Shown here: positions 25,202 through 30,953 of the stretch, in pieces
How the letters are laid out: the number at the start of each line of letters is the position of its first letter
Position numbering within the stretch: the stretch's first letter is position 1
Sequence record: PZ445432.1
Strand: one strand, 5' to 3'
Source of the DNA: a phage
Length of the DNA stretch: 64,000 nt
The notes under the pieces: generated by a model
What the model was told of the DNA's origin: nothing
The model's database searches: none
What the model saw: only the letters and a program-made list of their open reading frames with translations
Translations under genes and position numbers: made by a program

Positions 25202-25993
25202 TAATAAATTAGAGAACAGCGGGCCGATTACGCTGAGTGCAGAATCCAAACCGGAGTGCATTGAATAGAGTCGGTGGGTTAGTTGTAAAACTAGTACACA
25301 GTGGGCGGCAATCCCGGTTAGTGGCTAGAACGTGTAAAATGGGGCGTCTGAAACCTCTCCCCTAAACTCTTCTCTAGTTTATAAATAGTGGGGTGTGGAA
25401 ATCACTTATGTAGTAACACTGCCGATCTAGTATAAACGGTATTATCAAGCCGTAACTGGTGGAAGATGTAGGTTCGAATCCTACGATCGGTAAGAACTGG
25501 ATAACTGGTGCTTTTAACGTAAAAGCTTCCGAGGTTAGTTGCGCACTGCCTAAACCACGCGGTAGTTGGTTCCAGACTAACCAACCAGTCTGCTGAATAG
25601 TTTTATTACGATTTAACTATGTCCAGGCTAAAGAAGAACTTTAGAAGGTATTCTAGGTGGTGAAGTTTTTCCTCCATATCGGAGTAGTTTTTCAAGCTAC
25701 CAACAAAGTGGGAAATGCTGACATGAGAGATGTCACTAATGGTGCACAATAGCACAGGTAATTCGCGATAACTCCTGTTGAGTAGCAGCAAAAGGCGGGA
25801 AGTCATGACCCCAAGCCTAACCGAGTCCTCAATATACCGCAGGACATAACCACTAAGTCACCCTGACTTAAACTGGAAAATAATAGACGTTACTGTATTT
25901 TGTCTTGAAATACTTAATGAGTGAGACTTATGACTCTCCCGGTATCGTCTGTATTTTTAAGAGTTTTTACGAGAGTTCTTAAAAATACTTAAA
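25202..25993 (+). ncRNA. candidate non-coding RNA region (ORF-free, promoter-driven)
   Basis: ~800 nt downstream of a consensus promoter with no plausible plus-strand ORF; contains hairpins and one tRNA-like element. Confidence 0.3.
25421..25492 (+). other. tRNA-like element (canonical T-arm and acceptor pairing, other arms unresolved)
   Basis: gtaggttcgaatcctac T-arm; gccgatc/gatcggt acceptor; D and anticodon arms did not fold canonically by hand. Confidence 0.35.
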
Positions 25994-27971: not shown

Positions 27972-28049
27972 GGTTCTCAAGCTCATATGGTATGAGCACC
28001 CAGCTCATAACTGGAAGGTACGTAGGTTCGAATCCTCGGGGAGCCACCA
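27972..28049 (+). tRNA. tRNA with CAU anticodon (Met or Ile2)
   Basis: anticodon loop ctCATaa; D stem gctc/gagc; acceptor ggttctc/gggagcc with G-U pairs; T stem imperfect; CCA. Confidence 0.6.
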
Positions 28050-28552: not shown

Positions 28553-28627
28553 TGGGGGTGTAATCGAATTGGCATAGGTACTGTACTTAAAATTCAGGTT
28601 TTGTGGGTTCGAATCCCAGCGAGGCGT
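28553..28627 (+). other. tRNA-like element (unresolved fold)
   Basis: gtgggttcgaatcccag T-arm; no canonical acceptor partner found by hand. Confidence 0.3.
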
Positions 28628-28675
28628 AACTGCCTGGTGTGATAGAGGCATCATTCCACTAATATTGGAAAACTA

Positions 28676-28906: not shown

Positions 28907-28992
28907 TACTTGGAAGAGCAAATCGAATTGGCGACGAAAACCGCTTGGAAAGTGGCTGACCGGTAAAACGGCTTGAGAGTTCAAATCTCTCC
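28902..28992 (+). tRNA. tRNA-Ser (anticodon GGA), type II
   Basis: acceptor ggaagag/ctcttcc, anticodon loop ttGGAaa, long variable arm, T-arm gagagttcaaatctctc, CCA. Confidence 0.8.
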
Positions 28993-29004
28993 TCTTCCGC
29001 CAAA

Positions 29005-29099
29005 CAATTTATATGGTAGGTCAATCCAACGGCTGGCGCTGGACTCCGACTTGAAATCGGTTGATCGTAGTGATACGGTGTAAGGGTTCGATCCCCTTA
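29005..29099 (+). tRNA. tRNA-Ser (anticodon UGA), type II
   Basis: acceptor ggtaggt/acctacc, anticodon loop cTTGAaa, long variable arm, T-arm aagggttcgatcccctt, CCA. Confidence 0.75.
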
Positions 29100-29465
29100 C
29101 CTACCTCCAAATCTTGAAGTATGCCGGAATCGGTAGACGGGGCTGCCTAAAAGGTTTATAGGGAACATCCACTCCCTGCAACATACCTCATAAAGCGGCT
29201 GAGATAAATGGTCTATCTCGTGAAGGTTCAAGTCCTTCTGCTTCTTGATACATCTATGGCTCAAAGTGTAACGGTGCTATTTGATGCTCTTGGTAAGACT
29301 TCCCCGACATGCGTTCGGGAGTAAGCTGCTAAGACTAGAGTAGAAGAGTTTCTGAGAGCCGCCACAATTGAAAATTCGTACTCGTCTTGAGCTGCGTGCA
29401 ATAGGAGATAACTTGATTAGTATTCTAGAACATGCTAATTGAGGATGGTTTCGCTAACCCTGCGA
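29100..29465 (+). ncRNA. candidate structured RNA region including a tRNA-like T-arm (29212-29228)
   Basis: ORF-free 365 nt between tRNAs; gaaggttcaagtccttc T-arm-like hairpin; 13-bp inverted repeat ccacaattgaaaa/ttttcaattgtgg (29353-29365 and 29457-29469). Confidence 0.3.
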
Positions 29466-30519: not shown

Positions 30520-30676
30520 TAACCTAAAAGTCAAGATCGACAAACAAAAGAAACGTGTAGAAGTAGAGATTGGTGAAGAACGTGTAGCCTTCACCTTTGA
30601 ATTTCTACAACAAATGGCAATGACAGTTATGACTGATAAGTCTCCTGTTATTGAAAAAGAAATCCCGTTGAAATAA
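30512..30676 (+). CDS. small hypothetical protein (54 aa)
   Basis: hand-translated MADNLKVKIDKQKKRVEVEIGEER...; followed by cccgttgaaataacggg hairpin. Confidence 0.3.
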   Translation: MADNLKVKIDKQKKRVEVEIGEERVAFTFEFLQQMAMTVMTDKSPVIEKEIPLK

Positions 30677-30684
30677 CGGGTTCT

Positions 30685-30771
30685 GCTGGGTTGGCAGAAT
30701 GGTTGAATGCACCTGATTTGTAATCAGGAGGAGTAATCCCGTTGCAGGTTCGAATCCTGTGCCCAGCACCA
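30685..30771 (+). tRNA. type II tRNA, anticodon read as UGU (identity uncertain)
   Basis: acceptor gctgggt/gcccagc, anticodon arm cctga-ttTGTaa-tcagg, 15-nt variable arm, T-arm gcaggttcgaatcctgt, CCA. Confidence 0.55.
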
Positions 30772-30785
30772 ATTTAAGGACTATT

Positions 30786-30953
30786 ATGTTTAAACTGTTA
30801 GTAGTTATCTGGTATAGTCAATCAAATAGAGCGAATACCTCCCACGTTATAGACTTTACTACTAAAAATGAAGCTGAAAAAGCATATGCTAATTTAATAG
30901 AACGCAATAAAGAATCTCGTAGTATAGTTTATGAAGTGACTAAACTTTATTAA
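30786..30953 (+). CDS. hypothetical protein
   Basis: internal ATG with AAGGA RBS; track ORF start 30759 overlaps the tRNA and is trimmed. Confidence 0.4.
   Translation: MFKLLVVIWYSQSNRANTSHVIDFTTKNEAEKAYANLIERNKESRSIVYEVTKLY

Follow-up and report, generated by a model that had tools for sequence, protein, structure and literature searches.

A tRNA-Thr(UGU) gene with a long variable arm in the T5-like phage HildyBeyeler and its possible relation to nuclease evasion

The stretch of phage DNA studied here, referred to as the window, comprises 64,000 nucleotides (nt; sequence record PZ445432.1) and corresponds to the T5-group Tequintavirus Escherichia phage HildyBeyeler (Bas33; MZ501074). On its plus strand, at positions 30685-30771, it carries a tRNA gene in which the anticodon UGU and the acceptor stem of a threonine tRNA are joined to a class II body with a long variable arm. 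In the textbook classification of bacterial tRNAs, such an arm is reserved for those of serine, leucine, tyrosine and selenocysteine. The observation was confirmed as real and is well beyond chance. The annotation of the gene as tRNA-Thr, made by anticodon alone, is known from many records. The best overall explanation, which we hold with moderate confidence on the basis of sequence comparisons, is that the gene would encode a functional tRNA charged by the threonyl-tRNA synthetase (ThrRS) of the host, the arm of its class II body serving as a means of nuclease evasion.

The gene and the register of its anticodon

The locus is entered in GenBank (MZ501074) as bas33_0122, tRNA-Thr, and ARAGORN called 30685-30771 as tRNA-Thr with the anticodon tgt at position 35. 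The Rfam tRNA model (RF00005) matched it over model positions 1-71 of 71 with 58.9 bits (gathering score 29, E = 5.5e-11), and in this alignment U-G-U fell at positions 34-36 and the surplus bases appeared as an insertion in the variable region. The DNA sequence of 30685-30771 (plus strand), divided by structural element, is GCTGGGT-TG-GCA-GAATGGTTGAA-TGC-A-CCTGA-TTTGTAA-TCAGG-AGGAGTAATCCCGTT-GCAGG-TTCGAAT-CCTGT-GCCCAGC-A-CCA, and the corresponding RNA is GCUGGGU-UG-GCA-GAAUGGUUGAA-UGC-A-CCUGA-UUUGUAA-UCAGG-AGGAGUAAUCCCGUU-GCAGG-UUCGAAU-CCUGU-GCCCAGC-A-CCA. Its elements, all on the plus strand, are the following:

30685 to 30771, plus strand: complete tRNA gene, 87 nt, class II, anticodon UGU, CCA end encoded (ARAGORN, Rfam RF00005, GenBank bas33_0122)
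30685 to 30691, plus strand: 5' strand of the acceptor stem, GCUGGGU, paired with 30761-30767; supplies the threonine identity bases G1, C2, G4 and G5
30694 to 30710, plus strand: D-arm with a stem of 3 base pairs (bp), GCA/UGC, and the 11-nt loop GAAUGGUUGAA; class II, tRNA-Ser type, without nucleotide 17
30712 to 30728, plus strand: anticodon arm CCUGA-UUUGUAA-UCAGG; contains U36-A-A-U-C/A41, the sequence at which the nuclease AriB cuts the host tRNA-Thr(UGU)
30719 to 30721, plus strand: anticodon UGU, positions 34-36 (ARAGORN, Rfam)
30729 to 30743, plus strand: variable arm, 15 nt, made up of A, a 3-bp stem, a GUAA tetraloop and the 4-nt 3' linker CGUU
30730 to 30732 with 30737 to 30739, plus strand: variable-arm stem GGA/UCC, 3 bp
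30733 to 30736, plus strand: GUAA tetraloop of the variable arm
30740 to 30743, plus strand: 3' linker CGUU of the variable arm; its final U is nucleotide 48, in the Levitt pair with A15
30744 to 30760, plus strand: T-arm GCAGG-UUCGAAU-CCUGU with a 5-bp stem (Rfam, homologue alignment)
30761 to 30768, plus strand: 3' strand of the acceptor stem, GCCCAGC, followed by the discriminator A73 at 30768 (sequence, homologue alignment)

The acceptor stem has 7 bp, which gives the canonical 7/5 layout of acceptor and T stems. The assignment to class II follows from a variable region of more than 10 nt with its own helix, a 3-bp D stem, an enlarged D-loop and a 15-48 pair; the class I body with a variable loop of 4-5 nt, typical of described tRNA-Thr but no element of its identity, was not found, the arm having 15 nt. 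In thermodynamic folding the helix of the variable arm had a predicted pairing probability of about 0.87. Of the 17 bases of the D-arm, 13 are shared with E. coli serT and 8 with tyrU, and most matches to the D-arm motif in viral contigs were tRNA-Ser genes (92 of the 107 tRNAs called at such matches), while 14 of the 17 bases of the anticodon arm are those of E. coli thrU. The body is thus a hybrid, and its class II part combines a tRNA-Ser-type D-arm with a short variable arm like that of tRNA-Tyr.

With U33 and A37 in an anticodon loop of 7 nt, the register is the standard one. A shift by one base to GUA (Tyr) destroys the 5-bp anticodon stem and is contradicted by ARAGORN and Rfam, both of which place UGU in the standard register; it was rejected. 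The record of HildyBeyeler contains a separate and ordinary tRNA-Tyr(GTA), bas33_0095, and the identity of the present gene to the tRNA-Tyr genes of T5 and HildyBeyeler is only 65%. The preliminary description of the gene, made from its letters, had reported well-paired acceptor, D, anticodon and T arms (anticodon arm cctga-tttgtaa-tcagg), a 15-nt variable arm and an anticodon UGU that would specify threonine, and the sequence and both programs bear it out on these points. It had hesitated between a register error hiding a tRNA-Tyr, which the two programs, the separate tRNA-Tyr gene and the absence of G34 and U35 rule out, and an unusual tRNA, which was the right alternative: a threonine anticodon and a threonine acceptor stem on a class II body. 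It had also held that a conventional isotype called in the standard register would dispose of the oddity. Literally this has happened, as Thr was called by ARAGORN, yet the class II body stands; and the comparison with the T5 tRNA-Thr that it had proposed leads to a different gene of 75 nt at that site.

Covariation among homologues

Homologues were collected from annotated phage records, IMG/VR viral contigs, metagenomes and bacterial genomes, and 16 different Thr(UGU) sequences with the long arm, representing at least 8 lineages, were aligned without difficulty. In this alignment 98.4% of the cells were paired and changes on both sides were found at 16 of 24 pairs. The observed covariation score was attained by none of 500 shuffles; when the structure or its 3' partners were slid by 1-3 columns, pairing was only 30-42%. 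Every stem that varies showed compensatory changes. The helix of the variable arm was paired in 100% of cases, with changes on both sides at all 3 of its pairs, and the tertiary pair 15-48 covaried as well (G-C in 11 sequences, A-U in 5). The 3-bp D stem was invariant and hence uninformative in this respect. In the acceptor stem, pairs 1-72 and 2-71 were the same in 16 of 16 homologues and pairs 3-7 all covaried; the loop YUUGUAA was invariant throughout, and the discriminator at position 73 was mostly A, with U in two lineages. A second alignment to which long-arm Trp, Asn and Cys tRNAs were added gave the same picture. These data show selection on the cloverleaf and also on its extra helix. 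Given the compensatory changes in its helix, the variable arm is therefore a maintained structural element and not a decaying insertion.

Amino-acid identity

Identity elements were compared with the tRNA genes of E. coli K-12 and with the identity table in PMC9976931. The bacterial threonine set listed there consists of G1-C72, C2-G71, G4-C69, G5-C68, G35 and U36 (PMC9976931), and it is complete in the long-arm tRNA. The UGU anticodon, which supplies G35 and U36, is invariant in all homologues, and lineages from other hosts show variation at pairs 4-69 and 5-68.

The sets of the amino acids that normally use a class II body were examined in the same manner. For serine, G73 and G2-C71 are absent and A73 and C2-G71 are found instead, of which C2-G71 is a listed antideterminant against E. 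coli seryl-tRNA synthetase (SerRS; PMC9976931). The arm does not have the serine geometry either, having 3 bp and 4 unpaired 3' nt in the HildyBeyeler gene, while 61 distinct tRNA-Ser genes with the same D-arm had stems of 4-7 bp, with a single unpaired 3' nt in 59 of the 61, and 59 carried G73. The serine features C11-G24 and G30-C40 are present, but they are shared and insufficient for serine identity. For tyrosine, A73 is present and G34 and the critical U35 are absent, U and G standing in their places; the geometry of the arm does fit, that of E. coli tyrU comprising 13 nt with 3 bp and 3 unpaired nt. For leucine the picture is mixed. A73 fits, as does the pair A15-U48, which is found only in the T5-like lineage, other lineages having G15-C48 or U73; the D-loop, in which leucine identity involves a particular placement of G18-G19 and A20a, has the serine layout without nucleotide 17 and U at 20a. 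The U73 of two lineages suits none of the three amino acids.

Comparable agreement between anticodon and acceptor end was found in related tRNAs of other isotypes. The long-arm Thr, Trp and Cys tRNAs have stems of 2-4 bp, 3-4 unpaired 3' nt and a discriminator matching their own anticodon: the Trp tRNA combines A1-U72, G2-C71, G3-C70 and G73 with CCA and the Cys tRNA U73 with GCA, and the long-arm Asn tRNA likewise has G73 with GUU. Such a match would be surprising were all long-arm tRNAs substrates of one and the same class II synthetase.

With respect to its place in the phage tRNA complement, no tRNA-Thr other than the long-arm gene is present in the window or in the 12.7-kb tRNA region of the HildyBeyeler record. 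Two metagenomic arrays of 21-35 tRNAs (L371 and L381) likewise have no other UGU isoacceptor, and their Thr(GGU) and Thr(CGU) tRNAs are ordinary, of 74-75 nt, so that the long arm is limited to the UGU isoacceptor among the Thr tRNAs of these arrays. In the long open reading frames (ORFs) of the window (G+C content of the window 39%), ACA and ACU make up 24 and 46% of the threonine codons, respectively, and the usage of ACA is 12.9 per thousand. The long-arm tRNA is predicted to read ACA, and probably also ACU and ACG if its U34 is modified as in the host. Reading of ACU and ACG by a modified U34 is established for E. coli tRNA-Thr(UGU). Because of the shares of ACA and ACU, a tRNA-Thr with U34 would, if so modified, serve most threonine codons of the phage. 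In attention to all the above, the best-supported reading is that the tRNA is probably charged with threonine by ThrRS.

Two alleles at one site in T5-like phages

Two small ORFs and then a conserved hairpin precede the tRNA gene:

30664 to 30680, plus strand: hairpin CCCGUU-GAAAU-AACGGG just upstream of the gene, identical in T5, STG2 and HildyBeyeler, found by a terminator scan of the minus strand

This hairpin overlaps the stop codon of the small ORF preceding it. Behind the same hairpin T5 (NC_005859) has a class I tRNA-Thr(UGU) of 75 nt, T5t03, which is unrelated to the long-arm gene (62% identity) and has in common with it the position, the anticodon, G1-C72, C2-G71 and A73. The T5 type was found in about 310 phage records at an identity of at least 90% and the long-arm type in about 100 records of T5-like phages at an identity of at least 94%, and the flanking sequence was present in 427 phage records. 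T5-like phages thus have two alternative alleles at this position of their tRNA region. The hairpin marks the 5' limit of the stretch in which the alleles differ, and a promoter-like site at 30789-30818, 3' of the tRNA, has the same position as the T5 promoter P11. The tRNA-Asn is split likewise between a long-arm allele (HildyBeyeler) and a type I allele (T5).

Two pieces of information that had been taken as evidence for the long-arm gene were withdrawn on this account. The GenBank note to T5t03, according to which a change of its anticodon makes no amber suppressor, concerns the type I allele; and the published rescue from the defence system PARIS by "T5 tRNA-Thr(UGU)" was obtained with the T5 allele, i.e., with the unrelated 75-nt type I tRNA.

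Regarding its origin, no match was obtained, even at E = 10, when the 87 nt were compared by blastn with 5,426 E. coli genomes, and capture from the host was rejected on that result. Derivation from the class II tRNAs of the phage itself was also discarded, as the alignment with the Tyr, Ser and Leu tRNAs of HildyBeyeler shows no special similarity.

At this site the 10-mer AATCCCGTTG was noticed, which occurs exactly twice in the 64-kb window, at 30661-30670, in the upstream hairpin, and at 30735-30744, at the junction of variable arm and T stem. The second copy differs in some T5-like variants. The repeat may be due to chance or be a trace of allele-swapping recombination.

Distribution and sister tRNAs

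All search patterns required the D-arm TGAATGCA, so the pattern matches given here are long-arm tRNAs with this D-arm. A loose pattern, TGAATGCANNNNNYTTGTAA, gave at least 120 matches per collection, nearly all of them due to chance: 12 of the 240 matches listed were tRNAs, 3 of these being from the bacterial genome collection, and the chromosomal distribution is thus under-sampled. A stricter pattern was then used on the viral and metagenome collections.

Outside the T5-like phages, long-arm Thr(UGU) genes were found in the Aeromonas T4-like phages PX29 and Ah1, in an unclassified viral contig (L029), in several tRNA arrays of metagenomic origin, and in Acetobacteraceae and Rhodospirillaceae metagenome-assembled genomes (Rhodospirillales; L271, L254, L336 and L367, including metagenome contigs). 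The Rhodospirillales copy has 84% identity to the phage gene. According to Pfam, its flanks in three contigs encode lon, a dinB-type polymerase, a GlmU-like transferase, cytochrome b561, a DAO oxidoreductase, a glyoxalase and DctP. As these are housekeeping genes and not prophages, a distribution restricted to phages was rejected; instead, a bacterial lineage seems, from this gene context, to use the long-arm Thr(UGU) architecture chromosomally. This occurrence, together with the standing of the gene as sole UGU isoacceptor of complete arrays, speaks indirectly for charging with threonine.

The same body is found with other anticodons. A long-arm Trp(CCA) of 87 nt is carried by the Erwinia phages IT22, Hena1 and pEa_SNUABM_56 (L003:1492-1578, L004:1492-1578), and long-arm Cys(GCA) tRNAs of 85-86 nt with U73 by viral contigs (L054, L100); the D-arm, the T-arm and a short, GNRA-capped variable arm are common to the Trp, Cys and Thr genes. 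The long-arm Asn(GUU) of HildyBeyeler, of 86 nt and with G73 (L001:1062-1147), lies in a part of the record missing from the window. Relatives of it, of 83-86 nt, were found over at least 80% of the length in 594 phage records, among T5-like, Klebsiella, Enterobacter, Proteus and Providencia phages; the tRNA-Asn of T5 has 78 nt and a diverged anticodon stem.

The converse case also occurs. Both tRNA-Leu(UAG) and tRNA-Leu(UAA) of HildyBeyeler have 77 nt and a 5-nt variable loop, with no long arm, and keep A73 and the leucine-type D-loop (L001:4076-4152 and L365:303-379 of the HildyBeyeler record); the tRNA-Leu(UAG) of T5 has 85 nt. In the arrays L371 and L381, four Leu tRNAs of 77 nt stand beside one of 87 nt.

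The arrays with long-arm Thr tRNAs also contain putative suppressor tRNAs, with the anticodon UUA (reading UAA) in L368 and CUA (reading UAG) in L371 and L381, the latter labelled "Pyl" by ARAGORN.

The host nuclease AriB and a possible reason for the arm

The host tRNA-Thr(UGU) is a prime target of AriB, the nuclease of PARIS, which cuts it between positions 40 and 41 (UAAUC/A; PMC12409363). Cleavage is impaired by substitutions at or near the cut site (U39 to A, A41 to C) as well as in the D-loop (U16 to C), and it was not regained when the E. coli cut site was restored in the T5 tRNA-Lys (PMC12409363). Because a restored cut site is insufficient and U16 to C is harmful to cleavage, AriB must also read parts of the tRNA far from the cut; an AlphaFold 3 model places a second AriB subunit on the D-loop bases 16-17 (PMC12409363). 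A single experimental result bears on the long-arm gene itself, and it does so indirectly: Bas33, the phage studied here, is rescued from PARIS by T5 tRNA-Lys alone, while T7, which has no tRNAs, needs both Lys and Thr (PMC12409363). Bas33 encodes Thr(UGU) and not Lys(UUU).

Of the marks of an anti-defence tRNA, the long-arm tRNA has the anticodon of a host tRNA targeted by the nuclease and lacks base changes at the cleavage site; on resistance to cleavage or rescue of infection, the Bas33 result bears indirectly. The comparison of alleles is informative in this respect. The type I Thr allele of T5 reads UAAGC/A (U39 to G) and agrees with the host tRNA at 11 of 17 anticodon-arm positions, whereas the long-arm allele reads UAAUC/A, identical to the host, and agrees at 14 of 17. 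Similarly, the type I Asn of T5 has UAAGU/U and 9 of 17 positions as in asnT, whereas the 86-nt long-arm Asn of HildyBeyeler has UAAUC/C, identical to the host, and 16 of 17 positions as in asnT. Considering these Thr and Asn contrasts, phages appear to show two solutions, either a change of the cut site or a change of D-loop and variable region with the site kept.

According to this proposal, T5 would escape AriB by the mutation U39 to G at the cut site. The long-arm allele would instead keep a host-like anticodon arm, which would be favorable for ThrRS, for the enzymes modifying A37 and for decoding, and would present an altered D-loop and variable region, so that a nuclease recognizing shape would no longer fit. 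A defeat of AriB-like recognition through the changed shape of a class II body is, from the sequences compared, a plausible proposal about which we remain somewhat doubtful. A wider version, to be taken still more tentatively, is that phages and some bacteria keep identity and change architecture as a general way of hiding from defence nucleases or toxins that read shape, with Thr, Asn, Trp and Cys tRNAs gaining the arm and Leu tRNAs losing it. The anticodon arm, needed by synthetases, modification enzymes and ribosome, would be left as it is. If true, this would be a second, structural escape route beside the known mutations of anticodon loop and cut site, and AriB would be its first testable case.

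Alternative explanations

Several points weigh against a ThrRS-charged tRNA whose arm serves nuclease evasion. Class II synthetases such as ThrRS are understood to approach the tRNA from the side of the variable loop, where the arm could interfere. A73 and A15-U48, both determinants of leucine identity in E. coli, occur together in the tRNA of the T5-like lineage. The minimum-energy fold misses the D and T arms (-28.4 kcal/mol for the cloverleaf and -30.7 for the minimum); this result was given no weight in either direction, and it is common for unmodified tRNA sequences that the cloverleaf is not the minimum-energy fold. The long-arm Trp and Cys tRNAs belong to isotypes that are not known AriB targets, and evasion would thus not be specific to AriB, and the chromosomal copies of Rhodospirillales imply that the architecture is possible without a conflict between phage and host. 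Finally, the published rescue experiments and the amber-suppressor note bear on the T5 type I allele and not on the long-arm one, and the T5 deletion variant T5Mos is unprotected by its own tRNA-Thr (PMC12409363).

Some of these points fit a genuine threonine tRNA with a functionless arm, in which a class II scaffold of Ser or Tyr type was remodelled to Thr, the arm was tolerated and the alleles reflect mosaic exchange. The D-arm is indeed the standard one of tRNA-Ser, the same body carries Trp and Cys anticodons with no known link to AriB, the Rhodospirillales copies have housekeeping surroundings, and the lack of anything similar in E. coli genomes indicates an imported gene and not a host-derived one. 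A useless arm, however, would be expected to decay, while compensatory changes were found at all 3 pairs of its helix, and its layout (1 nt, 2-4 bp, a loop mostly of GNRA type and 3-4 unpaired nt) recurs across lineages and isotypes. In addition, neutrality predicts neither the contrast of body and cut site seen for both Thr and Asn nor the restriction to UGU in the arrays. This explanation is therefore rated as unlikely, although it is the rival to be taken most seriously. Mischarging, by which leucyl-, tyrosyl- or seryl-tRNA synthetase (LeuRS, TyrRS or SerRS) would take the class II body and place Leu, Tyr or Ser at ACA, could draw on the architecture itself, on A73, needed by LeuRS and TyrRS, on the fact that SerRS and LeuRS ignore the anticodon, and on the precedents of the nematode nev-tRNAs (reported) and the bacterial allo-tRNAs (proposed). 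We consider it improbable: serine is opposed by the lack of G73, the C2-G71 antideterminant and an arm too short and with a long 3' linker, tyrosine by the absence of G34 and of the critical U35, and leucine by the serine-type D-loop, U at 20a and the G15-C48 of other lineages. Moreover, U73 in two lineages fits none of the three synthetases, the ThrRS pairs 1-72 and 2-71 are invariant, the gene is the sole tRNA-Thr of the window and phage tRNA region and the sole UGU tRNA of the arrays, and systematic mistranslation of ACA (12.9 per thousand) would be costly.

The exact retention of the host motif UAAUC/A would also suit a decoy, i.e., a competitive inhibitor of AriB or a similar nuclease, or a cleavage sink, with decoding a secondary function; the authors of PMC12409363 suggest that some viral tRNAs may inhibit AriB competitively when overexpressed. 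The conserved ThrRS set, the encoded CCA and the position as sole Thr(UGU) in full tRNA sets point instead to a translating tRNA, and a decoy leaves the bacterial chromosomal copies unexplained, for which reasons it is very improbable. Finally, a misread tRNA-Tyr or a decayed class II pseudogene might be suspected from GUA one base downstream of UGU and from the Tyr-like geometry of the variable arm. This is already refuted, and its probability is negligible, given the 7-nt loop with U33 and A37 that fixes the register, the separate tRNA-Tyr(GTA) and the low identity to tRNA-Tyr genes, while the invariant YUUGUAA and the compensatory stem changes in 16 homologues exclude decay.

Relation to known tRNAs

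The long-arm tRNA is like E. coli thrU in its anticodon, in U36-A-A-U-C-A41, G1-C72, C2-G71 and A73 and in the encoded CCA; thrU differs in being a class I tRNA of 76 nt whose variable loop has 5 nt and whose D stem has 4 bp, the overall identity being 67%. It is like bacterial tRNA-Ser in the geometry and sequence of the D-arm and in the GNRA tetraloop cap, which is found in E. coli tRNA-Ser, and like E. coli tRNA-Tyr in the layout of the variable arm (1 nt, 3 bp, 3-4 unpaired nt), but, unlike both, it has the acceptor stem, discriminator and anticodon of threonine.

Among non-canonical tRNAs, the eukaryotic nev-tRNAs are charged with leucine. The allo-tRNAs (Mukai et al. 2017, PMC5389517; Krahn et al. 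2020, PMC7609411) resemble the long-arm gene in joining a long arm to an anticodon other than those of Ser, Leu or Tyr. They have an 8/4 or 9/3 arrangement of acceptor and T stems, carry serine identity elements (the arm together with G73 or U73) and are proposed substrates of SerRS (PMC5389517, PMC7609411), whereas the long-arm Thr gene has the canonical 7/5 arrangement and an identity set matching its own anticodon. A functional parallel is the T5 anti-PARIS tRNA-Lys(UUU) (Burman et al. 2024, PMC11464382; Belukhina et al. 2025, PMC12409363), also a phage copy of a host tRNA destroyed by AriB and encoded in the same tRNA region; it resists through U39 to A, A41 to C and U16 to C, while in the long-arm Thr tRNA, for which resistance is hypothetical, the cut site is intact and the architecture differs.

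In the literature searched, Thr or Asn tRNAs with a long arm were not described from any phage or bacterium. Neither the PARIS papers nor PMC10264068 (on anticodon-loop mutations in phages), PMC9976931 or PMC7609411 mention such tRNAs of class II, although older T5 literature may contain descriptions of this kind. The word "variable" does not occur in the PARIS paper PMC12409363, nor "phage" in the 2020 review of non-canonical tRNAs (PMC7609411). It must be noted that annotation by anticodon alone hides the long-arm architecture. If ThrRS charges the long-arm tRNA, it tolerates a class II body, which would be useful for tRNA engineering and for the rules of tRNA identity. Furthermore, discrimination by AriB beyond the cut site becomes testable with three natural substrates: the host tRNA, the type I allele with a mutated site and the type II allele with an intact site.

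Other features of the tRNA region

About 5.0 kb of MZ501074 (approximately 71667-76685 of the record) are absent from the window. The junction is at about 28598-28618, within 28553-28630, and the missing stretch contains the tRNAs Tyr, Glu, Trp, Phe, Cys, Asn (the long-arm gene), Asp, Lys(CUU), Pro, Ala and Leu(UAG). The junction falls inside the T-arm sequence GGGTTCGAATCCCA, common to tRNA-Leu(UAA) and to a tRNA-like remnant, and leaves a broken, chimeric tRNA-Leu(UAA) with a partial Rfam match (23 bits), the 5' part of which is at 28553-28618 of the window. By analogy with the T5 deletion variants T5123 and T5Mos (PMC12409363), this looks like the outcome of recombination between tRNA genes.

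At 25420-25493 of the window, ARAGORN called a "tRNA-Ser" of 74 nt with the unusual anticodon ACU, which Rfam matched with 39 bits and with the anticodon arm unaligned. Its equivalent in T5 is within the annotated stable RNA "RNAX" (L364:15432-15505). The call probably represents the tRNA-like domain of an RNAX-type RNA and not a decoding tRNA. ARAGORN missed three tRNA-like sequences of the window, at 27972-28046 (Rfam 38.2 bits), 28912-29002 and 29015-29109. The last two are tRNA-Ser in GenBank, with the anticodons GGA and UGA, respectively, and 29015-29109 obtained 38.3 bits, below the threshold, on the selenocysteine-tRNA model. The serine tRNAs of HildyBeyeler thus seem to be structurally atypical as well.

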